DNA of 64,000 bases, from sequence record HQ630627.1. The stretch is one strand, 5' to 3'. The first letter of the stretch is position 1, and each line of letters starts with the position of its first letter. The notes beneath the pieces are model-generated. The model made no database searches and had not been told where the DNA came from. It saw only the letters and a list, made by a program, of their open reading frames with translations. Source of the stretch: Pseudomonas phage PhiPA3. Shown here in pieces: positions 2,715-55,445 of this stretch. The position numbers and the translations under genes were made by a program.

Positions 2715-4910
2715 GCTAAAACTATTGGCGTGGCGTCGAGTCCGTTCAGTGCCGTAGATACGGTCATCACGGAAACGATTAGTCCGCACTTTACGGGTAC
2801 GTTCATCCTTGACCTGTTTGATCATGGCGTCAATACCCACGCCAGCTTGTTCTTCCAAGTCAATGTGTTTCGACAGGGAACGTAGACGCATCTCCAACTT
2901 AGTGATAACGAATGGGTTGGCTTCAGCTTTAAGCTGTTCCAGCAATTCATCAAACTCGGCTTTCTGTTGTTTCTTCTTGTCTTCCTTATACTTCTCCAGA
3001 GCGGTAGGTTCTGTGTCACGCAGAACAGCGCGAGAGAAGATAGTTGACGGGTTAATACCGTAGTAGGACAAGTGTTGGCCACGGATCAATACCCAGTGAG
3101 CCAGCAACATCGATACGACCATGTCATCATGATTATCGCGAGTGTGGTCAATCCGACCATTCTTGATAATCATAGCCAGTAGCTCAACAATAAGCTGTTT
3201 GTCTTTCATCCGACGAGAACCAAACTCCATCGAGCTTGGAAGGGCTTCTAAGAACAAGCTGTTACGAGAATAACGACCACCACCAGAAGTATTGAAACCG
3301 AAGTAACGCTTGAAGCGATCGTAGAACCCAGCGTGCCGCATAGACAGCGGAGTTTGGATATCACGGAACTCAGATTCAAGTACTGTGTGTTCATCCACAA
3401 TCCGGTTAAAGATACGTTTGAATGGGTCAATACCGACTTTGTGTAGCTCAAGGATAACAATGTCAATCAGAGCTGTACCCATCGACTTGCGTTCAGGAAC
3501 CCACAGGATGTTTGGGTATTTGATCAGCATCTGAGCAAAGAACTTAGCTAGAACCGGAACCGAAGTTTCGTTATAGCGACCAGCACAAATCACTTCGTGG
3601 GTTTCAACGTCAATCACTACAGCACCAGTAGCATCGTTGTCTTTACCGAGTAGTTCACTCGGGTCAGTACCCATGACAAATCTACCATTAGCCATTCTCA
3701 ATTCAATTTCTGGTTTCGGTATGTACCAACGTAAGGCGTAACCGTCAGCTGTCAGTTCAGTCCACAGTGGTTCGTTCTCAGATTCCTTCAGTTGTTTCTT
3801 CTGCTCGGGGCTTAGCGGAGAACCTTCACCCCCCACAGTCCAGACATTGAAGAAGTCGCGGTCTGCAATTTCCCCGAACGAACCAGATTCACGTAGTGTA
3901 TTGAACATCCATTGATCATCGCGTCCCAACTGTCTATGGTTAAACGCACCATAGATCAGAGGCTTCTTACCGGTCGAGCCTTTCTCTACCACCAGATGAA
4001 GCGCACGTTCGTTTGGTAGGTCAAAGTAAGATTCATCCCAGATTGCCCCACCCGTCAGGAACTTGTGAGCGAACTCACCATCACGTGTAGTGATGTTACC
4101 CGCGGTAGTTGTGAAGATGTTACCGTAAGGTTGGTTATTCATTCGCGCTTCGTCACGTGCAGCAGAACCTGACGCCAGTGCTACCGGAAGCGATACTTCA
4201 ATCAAGTTGATGTAGGCAAATTCGTCAAACTGCATGATTGGTACAGTAAGACCACGACCCAGTTTGTCTGCGGCAATACGGTCGTTACGACCTACAGCTG
4301 ATTTGTAACGATTACCAAGACGAACACATGTGAGCATCTCGGAATTGTCCACGTCATCACGGCTGATCATGTCGATGTAATCCGGGAGCAGTTCCCGCAT
4401 CTCTTTCAAACGCTCAATGTTCGCATTTCGCAGTTTGTTATCTTTCGTGATCAGGTTAATCGTGGTTTTCTCACCCCAGATATACATCATGCCGGTGTTG
4501 AGAATGTCAGTGGATACTGATTTACCTGTCTGACGTGGTTGAAGTAGTCCGAAGTCAACATGGTTAAAGAAACTCCAGTACAGTGCAATGTTTCCCCGAT
4601 TGGCACGGAACCTAGCTGGAACGCTACCAGAAGTCGCCGGCACACGAGCCACCTCACGGAAGTAATACCACGGGTTATATTTGCACTCTAAAGCGATCTT
4701 TATTTTGGTTGCGTCGTCCAAGTTCGGGTCGTATGGATCAACTCCCTGAAGATCTGGCTGAAGCAATGCAAGAATGAATTTCCAGTTCTCAACTTTCAGT
4801 TTATTCTTGTAAAGATCTGCGAGTTTTAGGAAGGTCTTATTTGAAGTTTTGGTGTCTGCAATGGCGGTTGGGAAGCGTTCCCAATCGCTGCGGAATAAAA
4901 TAACATCCAT
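2709..4910 (-). CDS. terL: terminase large subunit (T4 gp17-like)
   Basis: 733 aa; Walker A-like LLQPRQTGKSVS (compare T4 gp17 SRQLGKT), Walker B-like VPIMQFDEFAY (hhhhDE), acidic nuclease-like C-terminal half. Confidence 0.8.
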   Translation of the reverse strand: MDVILFRSDWERFPTAIADTKTSNKTFLKLADLYKNKLKVENWKFILALLQPDLQGVDPYDPNLDDATKIKIALECKYNPWYYFREVARVPATSGSVPARFRANRGNIALYWSFFNHVDFGLLQPRQTGKSVSTDILNTGMMYIWGEKTTINLITKDNKLRNANIERLKEMRELLPDYIDMISRDDVDNSEMLTCVRLGNRYKSAVGRNDRIAADKLGRGLTVPIMQFDEFAYINLIEVSLPVALASGSAARDEARMNNQPYGNIFTTTAGNITTRDGEFAHKFLTGGAIWDESYFDLPNERALHLVVEKGSTGKKPLIYGAFNHRQLGRDDQWMFNTLRESGSFGEIADRDFFNVWTVGGEGSPLSPEQKKQLKESENEPLWTELTADGYALRWYIPKPEIELRMANGRFVMGTDPSELLGKDNDATGAVVIDVETHEVICAGRYNETSVPVLAKFFAQMLIKYPNILWVPERKSMGTALIDIVILELHKVGIDPFKRIFNRIVDEHTVLESEFRDIQTPLSMRHAGFYDRFKRYFGFNTSGGGRYSRNSLFLEALPSSMEFGSRRMKDKQLIVELLAMIIKNGRIDHTRDNHDDMVVSMLLAHWVLIRGQHLSYYGINPSTIFSRAVLRDTEPTALEKYKEDKKKQQKAEFDELLEQLKAEANPFVITKLEMRLRSLSKHIDLEEQAGVGIDAMIKQVKDERTRKVRTNRFRDDRIYGTERTRRHANSFSW

Positions 4911-4989: not shown

Positions 4990-6648
4990 TTACGACCTAC
5001 GGTATACTGGGACAGCAGTCATAGCCAGCTGTAAGTCCTGCGATGCGAGACGTTTAATCCACTGTATATACAAGAGTTCACCATTGTTCAGCAGATCGTT
5101 GTTAACCCGCAGAACCTGGTTCCATTGCTCAACCGAGAACTCGTACGTGTTGTGCAGGAAGATACAACGGAAGTGAGTCGGGGTTGGTGCCACGGCTTCA
5201 GAAGCCGGGTTGACCAACGGCTCAGCCGCCTCGTACATCTTGCGTAGCCACGCTTCTTTGGTACTGGCACCGTTTGCCAAACGCAGATCCCATGCGTTGG
5301 TCTGAATGTAATCCAGATCAGCAATGAGATCACGGCCATAGCTGGCACCGGAGTCTGGACGCGGGTAGACTTCCCACTTCGCTTGAGTCTCACCCGATTG
5401 CAGCAAGGCAATCTGGAAGGTCGTGGTGAAGCGGTGAGGTGCAAAGCGACCATCAACCTTGTTCAGGTTAACAGCGTATTGCAGTGTCTGAAGAGTACCA
5501 TAGGCTTTCGGGTCGTACGGAGCCGAGTTGGTACCCAGTTCCACCAGAGCGGTAACGTTGTAGAAACGTGCACGATCCAGGTTGTACAGCCAGAACTCCA
5601 GACGGTAACCGGTGATAGCGTTGACCCATACTGGATAGACGAACAGACGACACTCATAAGCGCCATCAGCTGCTACCGTACGAGCTACGTAGTTCTCAGT
5701 AACCGAGCGATCAGCCGTTGGAGTAAGGGCGTAAGAGATCTCATCTTCGGCCAGCTTGTATACCAGCGTTAGAGGGAACTCTTGATCAATCTCGGTAGCG
5801 ATGTAATTCTCCAGACCCAACAGAGACATTTGGGTGGTGTTAATACCCAGACGAATCTGATTCCCGCCACGGTACGTTACCACACCGGTCATCGGGAGCG
5901 ACTCAACAGTAACGTTAAGTGGGAACTCGATTACCTTCGGATCAGAAGCAGACAGGAACGGAGTATCAATGGAGATACCCTTGACGTAACGTTTTGACTT
6001 GTCGGATTGGCGAATGGCTTCAGTATTCTGAATAAGAAGCTGGGCAATCGAAACCACCCCACCCTTATCGTCATACGCTACCAGTGTAACCTTCTCACCG
6101 TCGGTCAGTTCTTCAGCAGTGAATCCAACCATCGGAGCTTTGATGACCGTCTGAGCACTACCCGGTACCGGTACAGTTTCAACCGGTATCATCGGACCCA
6201 TGTATTCACCCGAGGGATCGTAGAAGGCCGAAATGATCTTACCGAACTCTTCCGAGATATCACTACCCAGGAAGACTTTGTAGCCAGCGACCATCGAACC
6301 ATAGAAATGTAACCGACGATCAGGGGCTAAGGTGTGAGGGGTAACCGAGGTGTCCAGGAAGCAACGATAACTTTCCGAACTGTAACCTGGACCAACACCC
6401 ACCAGAACGTTTTCATCGCCATCAGGATCACTGGCCGCCGGTGGAGACCACGGAGCCAGTTTAGCAATGTAGGTACCCAGTTCCAGTTCCGTTACACGGA
6501 AGAAACCTTGTGCCCAGTCTACGACACCATCCCCAACATTGGGGATGTATTTATCGGTCTGACCTACTTCCTGCTTAATCTGATCCCGACTCCACCAACG
6601 GAACGATCGAGTGGGATCATAAAAGTTTGTTTTGTCATAATCAGCCAT
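4990..6648 (-). CDS. hypothetical protein (possibly virion/structural)
   Basis: 552-aa ORF in a minus-strand operon upstream of the terminase; followed by minus-strand terminator at 4940-4976. Confidence 0.55.
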   Translation of the reverse strand: MADYDKTNFYDPTRSFRWWSRDQIKQEVGQTDKYIPNVGDGVVDWAQGFFRVTELELGTYIAKLAPWSPPAASDPDGDENVLVGVGPGYSSESYRCFLDTSVTPHTLAPDRRLHFYGSMVAGYKVFLGSDISEEFGKIISAFYDPSGEYMGPMIPVETVPVPGSAQTVIKAPMVGFTAEELTDGEKVTLVAYDDKGGVVSIAQLLIQNTEAIRQSDKSKRYVKGISIDTPFLSASDPKVIEFPLNVTVESLPMTGVVTYRGGNQIRLGINTTQMSLLGLENYIATEIDQEFPLTLVYKLAEDEISYALTPTADRSVTENYVARTVAADGAYECRLFVYPVWVNAITGYRLEFWLYNLDRARFYNVTALVELGTNSAPYDPKAYGTLQTLQYAVNLNKVDGRFAPHRFTTTFQIALLQSGETQAKWEVYPRPDSGASYGRDLIADLDYIQTNAWDLRLANGASTKEAWLRKMYEAAEPLVNPASEAVAPTPTHFRCIFLHNTYEFSVEQWNQVLRVNNDLLNNGELLYIQWIKRLASQDLQLAMTAVPVYRRS

Positions 6649-19974: not shown

Positions 19975-19982
19975 GGCATAAT

Positions 19983-20021
19983 AGCCCTCCCTTCGGGGAG
20001 GGTTTTAAACCGTTTTTTTTT
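19983..20021 (+). terminator. intrinsic terminator
   Basis: GCCCTCCC-TTCG-GGGAGGG, then TTTTAAACCGTTTTTTTTT. Confidence 0.7.
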
Positions 20022-20045
20022 CGCGGCCGGGCCCGGCGCCGCGCG
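20022..20045. other. GC-only palindrome CGCGGCCGGGCCCGGCGCCGCGCG
   Basis: Perfect palindrome core GCCGGGCCCGGC between a terminator and a 300-nt AT-rich region. Confidence 0.5.
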
Positions 20046-20299
20046 TAATATATCTTGTTTAAAGAGGTTAAGTACTCCGATAGGAGGAATTTTCTCTTAT
20101 TTTGTTTTTCTTTAAGAAAAGATTTACTCAGATAAATAGTAATTATATGTGGGGGGACCCTTTGGGGGGGTCCCATATATAATTTCCTTATTCTTAGCTT
20201 TAGCTAAGTTTAAGGGAAATATACCAATATGACCTATTTTAATAGAAGAGGGTGTTGGGACTCCAAGTCCCATTCCACCCATTAAATATTATTTTAAAT

Positions 20300-20309
20300 C
20301 TATATTACC
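20300..20309 (+). promoter_or_regulatory. promoter-like motif CTATATTACC (class A)
   Basis: TTAAATCTATATTACCTAGTTG, 38 nt upstream of gene 20347. Confidence 0.5.
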
Positions 20310-20346
20310 TAGTTGTATTTCATAAAAATCTAAAAGGACTATCACA

Positions 20347-39274: not shown

Positions 39275-39485
39275 GAAAAGATACTGGGGTTTATCATTTA
39301 ATACAGGAGTTGGCCGTAAGGTACGATCCTGCACTAAAAGCTATGCCCCAGTGTCCACTGTTTGCAAATCGTTTTCAACTTAAGGAAGCGATTATGTAAT
39401 ACAGTATGTGGAAGTTCTGCTACCACAATGACCTAGCTTTTATAGCGGGTTTCGTGGTTTATAGCCCATTGAAAAAAATCTCACA

Positions 39486-39496
39486 TCTATATCACA
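39486..39496 (+). promoter_or_regulatory. promoter-like motif TCTATATCACA (class B)
   Basis: 76 nt upstream of the candidate chimallin gene. Confidence 0.45.
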
Positions 39497-39570
39497 GGTG
39501 TGCACTCGTTCCCGAAAGGTTCTGAGTCTACTTGATCAAGTATTGAAATACCATCGTAAAGGAAAAAGAC

Positions 39571-41454
39571 ATGTCTATTCGTGATAGCGAAAACAACAAC
39601 GGCCAACAGCAGCAGACCGCGCAAACTGCCGCCCCCGCCCCGCAAATGCAACAGACCCAACAAGGACCCAAAGTGCAAACTCAAACTCTCCAAGGCGGTG
39701 CTGGTAACCTGAACAGCATCTTCCAGCGTTCCGGCCGTACCGACGGTGGTGACGCTCGTGCCAGCGAAGCGCTGGCTGTGTTCAACAAACTGAAAGAAGA
39801 GGCAATCGCTCAGCAAGATCTGCATGACGATTTCCTGGTCTTCCGTTTCGACCGCGATCAGAACCGCGTAGGTTACTCCGCTCTGCTGGTTGTTAAGCGT
39901 GCCGCTATCAACGGTCAACAAGTCATCGTTACCCGCCCGCTGGTAATGCCGAACGATCAGATCACTCTGCCGACCAAGAAACTGACCATCCAAAACGGGA
40001 TGCATCAGGAAACCATCGAAGCGGAAGCTGACGTACAAGACGTGTTCACCACCCAGTACTGGAACCGCATCTGCGACTCCATTCGTCAGCAAACTGGCAA
40101 GCACGACGCCATGGTCATCAACGCTGGTCCGACCGTCATCCCCGCAGATTTCGATCTGAAAGATGAACTGGTTCTGAAGCAGCTGCTGATCAAATCCGTC
40201 AACCTGTGCGATGACATGCTGGCCAAGCGTTCCGGCGAACAGCCCTTCTCCGTTGCCATGCTCAAAGGCACCGACGAGACCCTGGCTGCCCGTCTGAACT
40301 TCACTGGTAAGCCGATGCATGACAGTCTGGGCTATCCGATCCGTTCGGACATCCTGGTATCCCTGAACCGCGTCAAGAAGCCGGGCCAGCAGGAGAACGA
40401 ATTCTACGAAGCCGAAGATAAGCTGAACCAAGTCAGCTGCTTCGTCAACCTGGAATACACTCCTCAGCCGCAACAAGCCATCTACGGTGCTCCGCAGCAA
40501 ACCCAACAGCTGCCTCCGCTCACTCCGGCCATCGTCATCACCGACGTACGTCAGGCTGAGTGGCTGAAAGCAAACACCATGGAACTGTACCTGTTCGCTC
40601 TGAGCAACGCATTCCGTGTAACTGCTAACCAGTCCTGGGCACGTAGCCTGCTGCCGCAACTGGGTAAGGTCAAGGACATGCGCGATATCGGTGCAATCGG
40701 CTACCTGAGCCGTCTTGCAGCGCGCGTTGAAACCAAGACCGAAACCTTCACCGACCAGAACTTCGCCGAACTTCTGTACAACATGGTTCGTCCGTCTCCG
40801 GTGTTCATGTCCGACCTGAACCGCTTCGGCGACAACGCTGCGATCGAGAACGTCTTCATCGACGCCCTCGGTGGTGTAAACCAGCAGCGCGCTGTAGCGG
40901 CTATCATTGCCGGTGTGAACAACCTGATTGGTGGTGGCTTCGAGAAGTTCTTCGATCACAACACCATGCCGATCATCCAGCCGTACGGCACCGACATCCA
41001 GCTGGGCTACTACCTGGATGGCGAGGGTGAGAAGCAAGACCGTCGTGACCTGGACGTCCTGGGCGCTCTGAACGCCAGCGACGGCAACATCCAGGAATGG
41101 ATGAGCTGGTACGGCACTCAGTGCAACGTCGCAGTACATCCGGAACTGCGTGCTCGCCAGTCGAAGAACTTCGACCGTCAGTACCTGGGTAACTCCGTCA
41201 CCTACACCACCCGTGCACATCGTGGTATCTGGAACCCGAAATTCATCGAGGCTCTGGACAAAGCGATCGCGTCGGTTGGCCTGACCGTAGCCATGGACAA
41301 CGTGGCTCAGGTGTTCGGTGCTCAGCGCTTCAGCGGCAACCTGGCTATCGCCGACTACGCCGTTACTGGTACCGCTCAGGTATCCAGCGGCCTGGTTTCC
41401 AACGGTGGCTACAACCCGCAGTTCGGTGTAGGTCAAGGCTCGGGCTTCTATTAA
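39571..41454 (+). CDS. chmA: candidate chimallin (phage nucleus shell protein, phiKZ gp54-like)
   Basis: 627 aa, matching chimallin size; Q-rich disordered N-terminus; extreme high-expression codon bias; immediately upstream of the nvRNAP beta' N-terminal fragment gene, as gp54-gp55 are arranged in phiKZ; a 296-nt leader carries the promoter motif. Assignment rests on synteny and size, not recognised sequence. Confidence 0.45.
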   Translation: MSIRDSENNNGQQQQTAQTAAPAPQMQQTQQGPKVQTQTLQGGAGNLNSIFQRSGRTDGGDARASEALAVFNKLKEEAIAQQDLHDDFLVFRFDRDQNRVGYSALLVVKRAAINGQQVIVTRPLVMPNDQITLPTKKLTIQNGMHQETIEAEADVQDVFTTQYWNRICDSIRQQTGKHDAMVINAGPTVIPADFDLKDELVLKQLLIKSVNLCDDMLAKRSGEQPFSVAMLKGTDETLAARLNFTGKPMHDSLGYPIRSDILVSLNRVKKPGQQENEFYEAEDKLNQVSCFVNLEYTPQPQQAIYGAPQQTQQLPPLTPAIVITDVRQAEWLKANTMELYLFALSNAFRVTANQSWARSLLPQLGKVKDMRDIGAIGYLSRLAARVETKTETFTDQNFAELLYNMVRPSPVFMSDLNRFGDNAAIENVFIDALGGVNQQRAVAAIIAGVNNLIGGGFEKFFDHNTMPIIQPYGTDIQLGYYLDGEGEKQDRRDLDVLGALNASDGNIQEWMSWYGTQCNVAVHPELRARQSKNFDRQYLGNSVTYTTRAHRGIWNPKFIEALDKAIASVGLTVAMDNVAQVFGAQRFSGNLAIADYAVTGTAQVSSGLVSNGGYNPQFGVGQGSGFY

Positions 41455-41906
41455 TAGAAGCCTAACCAAATAACTCCCTCGGTAGATAGGGGTGTACGAA
41501 GGCGTACATCCCGATTCTAATGCGTATACTTAGGCCAACTCGAAAGAGATCGCCTAGAGATAGGTAGGTTCCGTGGTAGCCCCAGCTTTATCGGAAACTG
41601 ATTTATTGCAGACCTTGGTCATTGCCAGAGCGCTTATCTACGTTGTGGGGTAGGTTGATAAGACGACAATGACTCGGAGTGAGGCCCACTCTCCTTAACA
41701 GTGCAATTGGATCAAGTCTGGTCAGGCAGCGCTATCACTACACGAGTTGTGAGTTAGAACCACTTAACCCAAAAGGCGTCACTCTAGGGAGACGTTGTGG
41801 TTCACATGGGGCATGGAATCACCTAGCAGGCTTGATGGTAAAACATTAAGGTAACCAGCCGTGGAGGATACCCAACCCAAAATAGGGGTAACCCCCTGGG
41901 ATAAAG

Positions 41907-41946
41907 GCGGCTCCTTCGGGAGCCGCTTATATCTCCTTTTTTTGTC
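41907..41946 (+). terminator. intrinsic terminator upstream of the RNAP beta' N-terminal fragment gene
   Basis: GCGGCTCC-TTCG-GGAGCCGC, then TTATATCTCCTTTTTTT. Confidence 0.7.
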
Positions 41947-41969
41947 GTCGTAGTGGAGGGAATAACGAC

Positions 41970-43436
41970 ATGGGTCTGTATGCGGCAATCGTCAATCACG
42001 ACGAGATGCTTGCCAATGCAACTGGCAAGATCGTATTCGCAAATGACTTCAATACCAGTAACGCAGAACAGAAGGAGGAATTCACGCGACATCTGTATTC
42101 GCATTATCAGGATGCAGACGCCATTGAGAACTCGGCCTCGTGTGAATGTGAACACATCACAGATGCACACAAGCTCGGCGTAATCTGTGAAGTTTGTGGT
42201 ACACCTGTTGTTAGTACATCTAATCGTCCCATTGTTCCATCGATGTGGGTACGTGCACCGGAAGGGGTGGTGAGTCTGGTTAGTCCGGAACTCTGGATCA
42301 TGCTCAGTGGGTATATGACCATGAAGGAGTTCGACTTCCTGGAATATCTCACAAACACGGGCTATAGTTACGACTACGACACCATCAGCTCCAAAGAAAC
42401 CAAAAAGAAACTTGACAAGCTGTTACAACGTGGGTTTACTCGCGGCTTGAACCATTTCATCGAGAACTTTGATGAGATTTTTCAGTTCTTGCTTGATGCA
42501 AACATTATTAACAATAACAAAGGCGAGATGTATGCCTTTGTACAACAGAACAAACATAAGCTGTTCCCGAAGAATCTTCCAATCCCCTCCAAACTGTGTT
42601 TTGTGGTAGAATCAACCACATCGGGTACGTACATCGATAAACCAATTGCTGCTGCAATTGATGCGGTGTTGACCATCAGTTCGATTGGTTCATCTCCGAT
42701 TGAACTTAAGTCGATCGTTGTCCAAAATCGGGTAGCGCGATTCCTCAAATTGAATGCTACCTTCCACGAGAACTATGACAAACAACGGATAGCTCAGAAA
42801 CAGGGCCTGATTCGTCGACACGTCTTGGGTGGCCGTCTTAACCTGACCGCTCGGGCAGTAATCACCTCGATCAGTTCTCCGCATGATTACGATGAACTGC
42901 ATATCCCGTGGGGTGTTGGCTGTCAGCTATTGAAGTATCACCTGGTCAACAAGCTGAAACGTAAGTTCCGTATGACCACCCGAGATGCGATGTCCTACAT
43001 CTATTCGAAGGTACTAGCGTACGATCCGATGCTCGATAGCCTCTTCAAGGAAATCATTGCAGAATCCAAGTACAAAGGCCTGGCTGCGGTATTCCACCGT
43101 AACCCGACTCTACAACGTGGTTCGACTCAGCAGTTCTTCATCACCAAAGTGAAGAGCGACATCAGGGATAATTCCATCAGCATGTCTGTGCTATGTCTGA
43201 AGGCACCTAACGCGGATTTTGACGGCGATCAACTGAACTTGACGCTGATGCCTGATAACTATCTGGCTGATGCAACTGACCGAATCGCTCCTTGGAGCTG
43301 GGTACTGAGTACGGATGATCCCCATGAAATTTCGGGGAACTTGGAATTACAAGGCCCGGTTGTCGAGACGATCATTAACTTTGCTCACGAGGACTATCTC
43401 CCGCCGCTCGAAGAGTGGTTGAAGATGGCTGCCTAA
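41970..43436 (+). CDS. multisubunit RNA polymerase beta' subunit, N-terminal fragment (non-virion RNAP, phiKZ gp55-like)
   Basis: Zn-finger CECEH-x11-CEVC near the N-terminus; universal catalytic motif NADFDGDQLNL at residues about 405-415; ends shortly after, as in phiKZ-type split beta'. Confidence 0.85.
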   Translation: MGLYAAIVNHDEMLANATGKIVFANDFNTSNAEQKEEFTRHLYSHYQDADAIENSASCECEHITDAHKLGVICEVCGTPVVSTSNRPIVPSMWVRAPEGVVSLVSPELWIMLSGYMTMKEFDFLEYLTNTGYSYDYDTISSKETKKKLDKLLQRGFTRGLNHFIENFDEIFQFLLDANIINNNKGEMYAFVQQNKHKLFPKNLPIPSKLCFVVESTTSGTYIDKPIAAAIDAVLTISSIGSSPIELKSIVVQNRVARFLKLNATFHENYDKQRIAQKQGLIRRHVLGGRLNLTARAVITSISSPHDYDELHIPWGVGCQLLKYHLVNKLKRKFRMTTRDAMSYIYSKVLAYDPMLDSLFKEIIAESKYKGLAAVFHRNPTLQRGSTQQFFITKVKSDIRDNSISMSVLCLKAPNADFDGDQLNLTLMPDNYLADATDRIAPWSWVLSTDDPHEISGNLELQGPVVETIINFAHEDYLPPLEEWLKMAA

Positions 43437-55001: not shown

Positions 55002-55445
55002 GGTTCGCTATGAATGTCAATAAACATTGATTAAAGTATACTTATTTGTCCGTGGTATGTTGAACAAGTTGCCGTAGGATAAATAAGTGAAGATTTTAAT
55101 GGATGGATATTCAAAGAAATGTAAGAGCCTGCTTAATCAGCGATGGTTAAGTAATCGTCATCTAATTGCGGGAAACCCCTGAGAGCCTTATCTACTAACT
55201 CAACCCAGCGATGGAGTTGAGGGCCAGTCTAATCCACTGGGTACAGTAAAAATGATAAGGATTGGGCAATCCGCAGCGAAGCTTCTCTTTGAGAAGAACG
55301 TTCAACGACTAACCCCTAACCAGGGTGTAGAACTTAAGCGAGTTCGAAATGGTGACCCTCTCACGCAGAGGAAGATATAGTCTGTTCCCATGTGAAAGCA
55401 TGGGCGGGTGTCATAGCACACCGGGATAGCGTAGCGAACTATCTG
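55002..55445 (+). ncRNA. group I self-splicing intron (ORF-less) interrupting the RNAP beta gene
   Basis: P4 motif AATTGCGGGAAA (55164-55175); P7 halves GACTAA (55307-55312) and ATATAGTC (55375-55382) as in the Tetrahymena intron; GAAA-tetraloop P9 hairpin (55387-55404) followed by two more hairpins (55407-55424, 55425-55443); candidate IGS GCCGT (55071-55075) complementary to the exon end ACGGT with G.U at the splice site; no ORF over 60 aa inside; exact boundaries inferred. Confidence 0.6.

Follow-up and report, generated by a model that had tools for sequence, protein, structure and literature searches.

What occupies the longest gap between genes in a 64,000-nucleotide (nt) stretch of the Pseudomonas phage PhiPA3 genome (sequence record HQ630627.1; the whole stretch is referred to here as the window)? 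The gap lies on the plus strand between chmA (39571-41454), the gene for the nuclear shell protein chimallin (ChmA/PhuN, gp53), and gp54, which encodes the beta′ N-terminal subunit of the non-virion RNA polymerase (nvRNAP). PhiPA3 and phiKZ are models of the phage nucleus, and chimallin is a key early product whose mRNA is favored for Cas13 and antisense knock-downs. In the initial annotation of the window, the region after the chmA stop codon was proposed to be a transcribed, structured 3′ extension of the mRNA or an independent non-coding RNA (ncRNA). We found that it holds a non-coding, plus strand, multi-domain fold that is conserved by covariation in three genera, is modular, and is followed by a terminator; the proposal is supported by homologous non-coding gaps, compensatory changes, and a strand bias of G-U pairs. 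Our preferred interpretation, to which we give about an even chance, is that the segment is a structured 3′ untranslated region (UTR) of the chmA mRNA which accumulates as a stable ncRNA associated with the protein ChmC.

A non-coding fold downstream of chmA

The 627-amino-acid (aa) open reading frame (ORF) at 39571-41454, described at the outset as a candidate chimallin gene, was found to match nuclear shell proteins by tblastn and to fall in a protein cluster that contains PhiPA3 chimallin. On the other side, the frame at 41970-43436 encodes a 488-aa protein identical to the PhiPA3 nvRNAP beta′ subunit gp54 (AEH03481.1). The chmA frame ends with TAA (41452-41454) followed by an in-frame TAG (41455-41457), and the full gap between the two genes spans 515 nt. 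The ORF-free region of about 450 nt (41455-41906) that drew attention initially is real, and represents the part of the gap that precedes the terminator. Based on a rough ORF tiling of the window, the median intergenic distance was about 28 nt, in agreement with the tight gene packing noted before; the chmA-gp54 gap was the longest true gap, followed by gaps of 340-380 nt, one of which is a group I intron. The balanced composition was likewise reproduced, with a GC content of 0.49-0.50 in the gap compared with 0.39-0.41 in the AT-rich spacer upstream of chmA and 0.55-0.60 in chmA itself. The tiling is misled by a 660-aa minus strand ORF (39487-41469), which overlaps chmA almost fully, is longer than chmA, and hides part of the gap; this ORF is a shadow of the strongly codon-biased chmA and not a gene.

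In terms of coding capacity, the longest plus strand ORF in the gap was 56 aa (41679-41849, GTG start), consistent with the earlier statement that none exceeds 60 aa, and each frame of both strands carries 7-12 stop codons. No match to Pfam or PHROG was detected for any small ORF of the gap, and no frame was open or conserved at the homologous gaps of five phages. The ORFs that other genera have at the same position (201phi2-1 gp106, Phabio gp083, and Psa21 gp057) displayed no similarity by tblastn to the gaps of PhiPA3, PA1C, or phiKZ. A protein-coding gene or small ORF was rejected on the basis of the missing conserved open frame and protein-family similarity, and a decayed gene on the basis of the negative tblastn results with the ORFs of other genera. 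Some genome records annotate "hypothetical proteins" of 35-62 aa over the region; their frames are not conserved, and these annotations are best regarded as over-calls.

Evidence for an RNA fold was obtained from both energy and covariation. The minimum free energy (MFE) of the plus strand corresponded to a z-score of -3.3 relative to dinucleotide shuffles, of which 1 in 100 was as good, while that of the minus strand was -2.2; the homologous RNAs of PA1C (z = -3.7) and phiKZ (z = -3.65) were similar. Comparison across relatives, which had been proposed as a check in the initial annotation, was performed with an alignment of eight distinct sequences of the PA1C and phiKZ groups (PA1C, HPP-Temi, phiKZ, KTN4, SL2, T2P, W10-2, and PA7); the sample for structure is small, at 8-9 distinct sequences from three lineages. 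The RNAalifold consensus of the eight sequences consisted of four units (D1, D2, D3, and the terminator) with 113 predicted pairs, and standard pairing was present in 98.8% of 900 cells. Eight pairs were changed on both sides, compared with 0-1 in slid controls in which the 3′ partners were shifted by 1-3 columns, and none of 500 column shuffles scored as high. Compensatory substitutions therefore exceed the controls, as is characteristic of a conserved structured RNA. In addition, 12 of the 113 consensus pairs are mainly G-U and would be C-A mismatches on the opposite strand; therefore, the folded molecule is the plus strand RNA. Three-way alignment with PhiPA3 revealed invariant blocks (CTCGGTAGATAGGG, CATCCCGATTC.AAT, GTAGGTTCCG, CTACACG, CACTTAACC.AAAGG, and the terminator) with variable stems between them.

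The element was then compared with known RNAs. The Rfam scan that had also been suggested initially (Rfam 15, 4227 models) assigned no family to the element at the gathering threshold, and the best matches at E ≤10 within 41300-42100 (E 0.29-5.8) were all on the terminator hairpin or on H1, a hairpin of D1. The only gathering-level match in the whole window was a group I intron at 55111-55404 on the plus strand (RF00028, 79 bits, E 1.8e-18), which explains the long "gap" at 55014-55391 and corresponds to the self-splicing intron reported within the PhiPA3 nvRNAP subunit gene gp65-66 (PMC11077065). When seven homologous loci and a locus of Ralstonia phage RP13 were scanned, no family was found for the element, and the matches obtained were group I introns, tRNAs, and a twister-sister in RP13. 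Among these was a group I intron in the phiKZ locus (5308-5629, plus strand, 75.6 bits), which overlaps the 3′ end of the HNH endonuclease gene PHIKZ056, extends downstream of it, and lies with it in the gene neighborhood of the phiKZ copy of the element. A group I or group II intron was rejected for the element itself, as no such model matched in the chmA-gp54 gaps even at E ≤10, while RF00028 finds the true introns. ARAGORN detected no tRNA or tmRNA gene in the window. Likenesses noted by eye, including (i) the 3′ end of 16S rRNA, the GGA display of RsmY/Z, A-rich CrcZ, a k-turn, and a tetraloop-receptor; and (ii) a SAM-I-like P1 of CUUAUC...GAUAAG, did not hold up. No RNA at this position is described in two recent reviews or in the main text of the transcriptome papers on phiKZ and 201phi2-1. 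The element is an uncharacterized structured RNA family of a known general kind, that of phage and viral RNAs derived from 3′ UTRs, and is unusual in its size, domain organization, and exchangeability.

Domain architecture and terminator

D1 (41478-41746) is a four-way junction closed by helix P1 (CUCG at 41478-81 with CGAG at 41743-46), and is common to the PA1C and phiKZ groups. One P1 pair is U-A in PhiPA3 and phiKZ and C-G in PA1C. Using profiles of PA1C and phiKZ, nhmmer located the 5′ part of D1 at 41473-41575 (E 2e-9) and its 3′ part together with D2 at 41707-41798 (E 5e-6), and the D1 covariance model R1 matched PhiPA3 with 39 bits (E 1e-9). R1 mis-assigned the 3′ closure of D1 to an internal repeat at 41635-41654; MFE folding and nhmmer place it at 41731-41746, and the segment 41473-41752 folded alone by MFE adopts the same architecture as the D1 consensus.

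The first arm of D1, H1 (41483-41519), is an extended hairpin with a UAGA/UCUA helix, an internal loop, a 10-bp stem (41489-41498/41503-41512), and an AAGG loop. The local hairpin reported initially, GGGGTGTACG-AAGG-CGTACATCCC, is the stem of H1; it is present, at 41489-41512 instead of 41488-41510. The bases that flank H1 (GAUAGGG...CCCGAUUCUAAU) are invariant in the alignment, and its distal stem carries compensatory pairs, which are A-U/C-G in PhiPA3, C-G/A-U in PA1C, and U-A/A-U in phiKZ. H2 (41521-41566), delineated by MFE and the helix table, has the tip CUC-GAAA-GAG in PhiPA3 as opposed to UCAC-UUCG-GUGA in PA1C and phiKZ, and its outer pairs use the GUA of a conserved GUAGGUU. This sequence belongs to the motif GUAGGUUCCG (41564-41573), which is invariant in PhiPA3, PA1C, and phiKZ and includes GGUUCC (41567-41572) as an unpaired junction between H2 and H3. 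The GTAGGTT repeats that were observed at the outset number two copies, at 41564 and 41650. The base of H3 (41573-41738), predicted by MFE, pairs GUGGUAGC (41573-80) with GCUAUCAC (41731-38) and is conserved with phiKZ (GUGAAG/CUAUCAC). Within H3 lies a branched insertion of about 150 nt (41581-41730) that is specific to PhiPA3, holds the second GTAGGTT, and had no match in the phage collection searched, which excludes PhiPA3 itself. Segments 41606-41647 and 41701-41751 share a weak, gapped similarity, and the insertion weakly resembles a partial second copy of the 3′ part of D1.

D2 (41757-41803) is a three-way junction closed by GAACCAC/GUGGUUC in PhiPA3 and by GAUCAC/GUGAUC in PA1C and phiKZ. 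Its two hairpins are CC-AAAA-GG (CC-GAAA-GG elsewhere) and CGUC/GACG (GUUAC/GUAAC elsewhere). The D2 model R2, which was built without PhiPA3, identified 41753-41804 (23.6 bits, E 0.01), and when PhiPA3 was included in the D2 alignment, 98% of cells were paired, with three double-sided changes versus none in slid controls. Compared helix by helix, PhiPA3 retains the pairing with other letters in the distal part of H1, the tip of H2, the D2 stem, and the second D2 hairpin. The remaining sequence up to the terminator, D3′ (41804-41899), replaces the D3 of PA1C, phiKZ, and phiHQ; its MFE fold includes a GGGG-UAA-CCCC hairpin at about 41884-41897. The nhmmer profile of D3 had no match in PhiPA3 41804-41899, and the only motif common to D3′, which carries GAUGGUAAAA at 41834-41843, and the D3 of PA1C and phiKZ is GAUGGUAAA (GGUAAA). 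The consensus D3 of PA1C and phiKZ is a long branched hairpin in which two loops, GCGGAG and CUCCGU, are complementary and both invariant, and we infer that they may engage in a loop-loop contact.

An intrinsic terminator, identified from its sequence, is located at 41900-41943. The canonical terminator of the initial annotation is real and stronger than stated, with its coordinates corrected from 41907-41946. It is composed of a 15-bp stem (41900-41914/41919-41933) with one A-A mismatch, a UUCG loop, the bases UCC, and a run of seven U residues (41937-41943), and so has the G+C-rich stem-loop and U-tract of an intrinsic terminator. It escaped a simple terminator scanner, as the T-run comes three bases past the stem. 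The terminator is 97% identical to that of phiKZ (nhmmer E 6e-9 at 41901-41944) and is conserved in all relatives. The gp54 start follows, with a Shine-Dalgarno sequence GGAGGG and an ATG (41955-41972) placed 27 nt past the T-run. The exact core CTCCTTCGGGAG, a stem with the UUCG tetraloop, was detected in six plus strand hairpins of the window (2284, 2625, 31959, 36350, 41911, and 61397); its presence at five sites other than the chmA-gp54 gap indicates that it is a standard terminator type of PhiPA3. At 2625, 36350, 41911, and 61397, a spacer of about 10 nt (TTATGCATTTA, TTTATGCCATA, and TTATATCTCC) precedes the T-run. The 3′ arm and spacer of the terminator, CTTATATCTCC, resemble the early-promoter core CTATATCAC upstream of chmA, and the spacer may double as a promoter element to yield a composite terminator-promoter punctuation. 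At the other end of the gap, an 8-bp perfect hairpin read directly from the sequence, GGCTTCTA-TTAA-TAGAAGCC (41443-41462, plus strand), has the two consecutive chmA stop codons within it; short palindromes of the GGTACC type are also present at the chmA stop of PA1C and phiKZ.

Distribution and exchange of domains

By tblastn, the chimallins closest to that of PhiPA3 are those of the PA1C group (Pawinskivirus; 66-67% aa identity), followed by Phabio (55%), 201phi2-1 (53%), phiKZ (48%), and Noxifer (43%). Conserved pieces of the gap were detected by blastn in 55 Pseudomonas jumbo phages, and the distance from the nuclear-shell gene to the nvRNAP gene is 427 nt in PA1C, 394 nt in phiKZ, 536 nt in phiHQ, and 435 nt in Psa21. 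No protein gene takes the place of the element in the PA1C group, the phiKZ group, or phiHQ, all of which have a homologous non-coding gap. The ORFs found between chmA and the nvRNAP gene elsewhere are 201phi2-1 gp106 and Phabio gp083, both positioned past a separate terminator, and the doubtful minus strand Psa21 gp057. As far as seen, D1 and D2 do not extend beyond PhiPA3 and the PA1C and phiKZ groups. Model R1 did not detect D1, even with filters off, in Phabio, 201phi2-1, Psa21, a 325-kb IMG/VR contig, RP13, or the 5′ half of the phiHQ gap; its top matches in these phages were terminator hairpins. A non-coding sequence of 190-285 nt, rich in hairpins, and a terminator come directly after chmA in Phabio, 201phi2-1, and the IMG/VR contig. 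In Noxifer and D6, chmA, the terminator, and the nvRNAP gene are kept, the gap is about 85 nt, and the element is absent.

Pieces of the element differ in their history. The phiHQ gap is a chimera, in which a Psa21-type 5′ module is joined to PA1C-type D2 and D3. Between PA1C and phiKZ, the gap is 83% identical, compared with 57% for chmA and 64% for the nvRNAP gene, and the differences are unevenly spread (0 of 48 positions in H2 and its junction, 18 of 54 in H1, 11 of 58 in H3, and 10 of 50 in D3a). Four phiKZ-type phages (SL2, T2P, W10-2, and PA7) differ in D3a (alignment columns 213-262) from PA1C at 2-5 of 50 positions and from phiKZ at 8-10 of 50, a pattern that signals recombination between the two genera inside the RNA element. 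Within the phiKZ group, pairwise divergence is 3.15% in the gap versus 0.5% and 1.15% in the adjacent coding DNA and 1.5-2.9% at third codon positions. Judged from these comparisons, the element is under no strong overall constraint on its primary sequence, with a fast change that is mostly pair-preserving and with only the junction motifs fixed, and its pieces move between co-infecting lineages by recombination.

Searches of public collections by pattern recruited no added diversity. A chimallin-based search for related loci returned only 201phi2-1 and the 325-kb IMG/VR contig, the latter with a short and unrelated non-coding stretch. The pattern CATCCCGATTCNAAT had at least 119 chance matches in IMG/VR; two longer motif patterns retrieved only phage PA7 from public collections; and the 22 matches of a single metagenome scan were all judged to be chance upon inspection. 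A motif of the Psa21/phiHQ module (module C) was found only in Psa21 in IMG/VR, with five chance matches in genomes.

The Psa21-type module is a second RNA, unrelated to the PhiPA3 element. It was identified at locus coordinates 1029-1335 in phiHQ, 4277-4600 in Psa21, and 2817-3097 in RP13, and the Psa21/phiHQ and RP13 versions are 82% identical over 87 nt. In phiHQ and Psa21 the module follows chmA; in RP13 it is directly upstream of a tRNA-Leu gene, the gap ending ten bases before that gene. One of its helices covaries between AGGUC/GACCU (phiHQ and Psa21) and UAGUC/GACUA (RP13), and a further one between CCCAG/CUGGG, CUCGAU/AUCGAG, and CCAGAU/AUCUGG; a pseudoknot of UACGGU with ACCGUA is possible, and Rfam had no match to the module. 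Psa21 gp057, which overlaps the module on the opposite strand, is probably not a gene. A resemblance of the Psa21/phiHQ module to P4/Q of group I introns (AATTGCAGG ... CCTGCCAAAG) was rejected because of its overlap with the covarying AGGUC/GACCU helix and the absence of a match to any intron model. In RP13, a twister-sister match was detected about 2.4 kb upstream of the module, at 589-664 on the plus strand (RF02681, 36 bits versus a gathering threshold of 34, E 3e-5).

Transcription, function, and competing explanations

Transcription of the region and its association with ChmC already have published support; the domain architecture, covariation, phage distribution, and modular exchange are new here. 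Enustun et al. 2024 (Nucleic Acids Research, PMC11077065) reported unannotated ChmC peaks by enhanced crosslinking and immunoprecipitation (eCLIP), with high read coverage, between chmA (gp53) and gp54 of PhiPA3, and suggested without further analysis that ChmC binds small regulatory RNAs. Their report concerns the same locus in the same phage, and gives no boundaries, structure, homologs, or family. In our preferred interpretation of a structured chmA 3′ UTR, transcription from the chmA promoters would continue past the coding part of the mRNA into the element, which would fold co-transcriptionally into a chain of autonomous domains (D1 with its inserted branch, D2, and the lineage-specific domain), and would end at the strong intrinsic terminator with partial read-through into gp54. 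The region may outlive the coding part because its compact helices and 15-bp terminator stem would block 3′-to-5′ exonucleases and would offer few single-stranded RNase E sites, leaving an abundant ncRNA of about 0.45 kb or a set of fragments, and this RNA would associate with the nuclear-shell RNA-binding protein ChmC. The likely roles are protection or tuning in cis of the most heavily used early mRNA and service as a protein-binding RNA, for which ChmC is the sole evidenced partner. The location of the element fits a 3′-UTR-derived ncRNA: it follows the chmA stop codon on the coding strand, and one terminator serves both. D1 starts 24 nt after the TAA, which would leave no room for a separate promoter. 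Moreover, the non-coding stretch and terminator that follow chmA directly in Phabio and 201phi2-1, before the extra ORF, argue for a link to chmA and not to the nvRNAP gene.

The closest known systems are PAK_P3 ncRNA1 and ncRNA2 and the phiKZ 3′UTR_PHIKZ298, which are phage ncRNAs derived from 3′ UTRs (PMC10914365; PMC8545117). Like the element, these RNAs lie past a stop codon in the same orientation and end at the upstream gene's terminator; they are abundant and structured, and none has its own transcription start. They are, however, of 90-210 nt with about two stem-loops, as opposed to the 370-490 nt, multi-way junctions, invariant junction bases, and interchangeable domains of the element, and are not related to it in sequence. 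Other phage-encoded RNAs of several hundred nt, namely GOLLD (RF01998), ROOL (RF03087), and HEARO (RF02033), are likewise multi-domain and supported by covariation; the element does not match them, and differs in being tied to the 3′ end of one gene in a few genera of Pseudomonas jumbo phages. In flaviviruses, the 3′ UTR is a chain of autonomously folded domains, some of which are duplicated or swapped in particular lineages, and outlives the coding part as a protein-binding ncRNA, the subgenomic flavivirus RNA (sfRNA). The parallel would be one of functional analogy only and not homology, as sfRNA belongs to a eukaryotic RNA virus and resists the 5′-to-3′ exonuclease Xrn1. A conserved multi-domain RNA of about 0.4-0.5 kb on the chmA mRNA has been overlooked in annotation. 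If it controls the stability, export, or localization of this mRNA or the read-through to nvRNAP, it would be part of the building and timing of the nucleus; if it acts in trans, it would add an RNA-based player to phage-host or phage-phage conflict. On a practical level, the analysis provides defined domain boundaries, a candidate family for RNA databases, and an explanation for the published eCLIP peaks.

Several points weigh against the structured 3′ UTR interpretation. ChmC binds phage RNAs with little specificity, such that the eCLIP peaks may reflect abundance (PMC11077065). The unpaired junction bases that are invariant (GAUAGGG, CCCGAUUCUAAU, GUAGGUUCCG, and CUACACG) would be needless for a pure stabilizer, and suggest that the RNA adopts a specific tertiary fold or has a specific partner. 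Noxifer and D6, which do not have the element, indicate that it is dispensable for chimallin expression as such, and its fast change and mosaicism fit an exchangeable accessory function better than housekeeping. More than stabilization is suggested by the junction bases, by the patchy, mosaic distribution, and by the relative in RP13; the main rival is therefore an accessory RNA acting in trans, such as a decoy or sponge that captures a host factor or defense system or an agent of competition between co-infecting jumbo phages, whose domains are exchanged cassettes and whose placement behind the strongest early gene serves only high output. We regard this as possible but unlikely. It would account for the absence of the element from Noxifer and D6 and the different content in other genera, for the domain swaps (the Psa21-type 5′ module of phiHQ and the PA1C-like D3a of SL2, T2P, W10-2, and PA7), and for the 83% identity of the gap between PA1C and phiKZ relative to 57-64% for the flanking genes together with the fast turnover in the phiKZ group; the module next to the RP13 tRNA-Leu implies that such RNAs can work away from chmA, and invariant junction bases are found in RNAs with a specific ligand or partner. 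Nonetheless, the target of such an RNA is not known, the tandem repeats of known decoy RNAs (CRISPR-repeat-like or ToxI-like) are not present, GGA motifs are by our reading neither enriched nor displayed in loops as in RsmY/Z, and the constant position directly past the stop codon in five genera argues for a link to chmA expression. A broader proposal, which we consider improbable, is that the slot downstream of chmA is a cassette site that holds exchangeable RNAs, which are tertiary-structured and have specific partners. If so, the resident RNA could be (i) a ChmC-recruiting "address label" that directs the chimallin mRNA to export or to translation close to the shell; or (ii) a decoy against host defenses or rival jumbo phages. 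Nucleus-forming phages would then have an uncharacterized RNA layer of organelle biogenesis or warfare, of which the tRNA-adjacent module of RP13 would be a free-standing toolbox member.

The element could instead act on the downstream gene, as a cis-regulatory leader of gp54 (a riboswitch-like sensor, an attenuator, or a put-like antiterminator) that sets read-through. A large conserved fold directly before a strong terminator, with an essential early gene 27 nt on, would suit this role; co-transcription of chmA with the downstream nvRNAP cistron has been reported in phiKZ (Gerovac et al. 2025, PMC12571901), and ligand-binding aptamers typically have conserved, unpaired bases at their junctions. 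The HK022 put RNAs and riboswitch-terminator units similarly place a folded nascent RNA before a terminator that downstream expression must pass. In contrast to those systems, a search for antiterminators in PhiPA3, PA1C, and phiKZ revealed no conserved pairing with either arm of the terminator, the best competing duplexes being non-homologous in position and weaker than the terminator; conservation does not extend to the terminator-proximal domain (D3′ in PhiPA3 and D3 elsewhere); D1 is more than 150 nt upstream of the terminator and is wholly replaced in phiHQ; Phabio and 201phi2-1 have an extra ORF and second terminator between the chmA-proximal non-coding region and the nvRNAP gene; and no riboswitch family matched. 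A gp54 leader is therefore an unlikely explanation. That the stretch is functionless filler, whether a gene in decay, what is left of a mobile element or intron, or a spacer with incidental hairpins, might be suspected from its absence in some relatives, its fast evolution in the phiKZ group, and the frequency of introns and HNH genes in these genomes. This is disfavored and highly improbable, given that compensatory changes keep 98.8% of pairs, that the junction motifs are invariant between phages with chimallins of 48-67% identity, that neither protein similarity in any frame nor an intron match was found, and that the position is kept in three genera. We consider it very unlikely that the element is a separately transcribed ncRNA gene with its own promoter at the end of chmA or inside the gap. 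The eCLIP coverage does form discrete peaks in "short regions" (PMC11077065), and promoters of the phiKZ type are short and AT-rich and could be overlooked; however, P1 begins only 24 nt past the stop codon, and the gap has no A-rich tract followed by an early motif resembling TATAT(T/C)AC, such as that present upstream of chmA (39470-39500) or at about 20300. A sigma-70 scan of the gap was also empty, though such a scan is of little relevance for these phages.

The early motif at about 20300 belongs to another long gap of the window. This plus strand gap (19975-20346) is 372 nt in length, AT-rich (GC 0.37), and contains an array of G+C-rich hairpins with an MFE z-score of -5.5. The sequence at its end, AAATCTATATTACC, is similar both to the early promoter of the phiKZ type and to the motif found before chmA (39478-39497, ATCTCACATCTATATCACAG), and the gap is probably a cluster of terminator and promoter elements.

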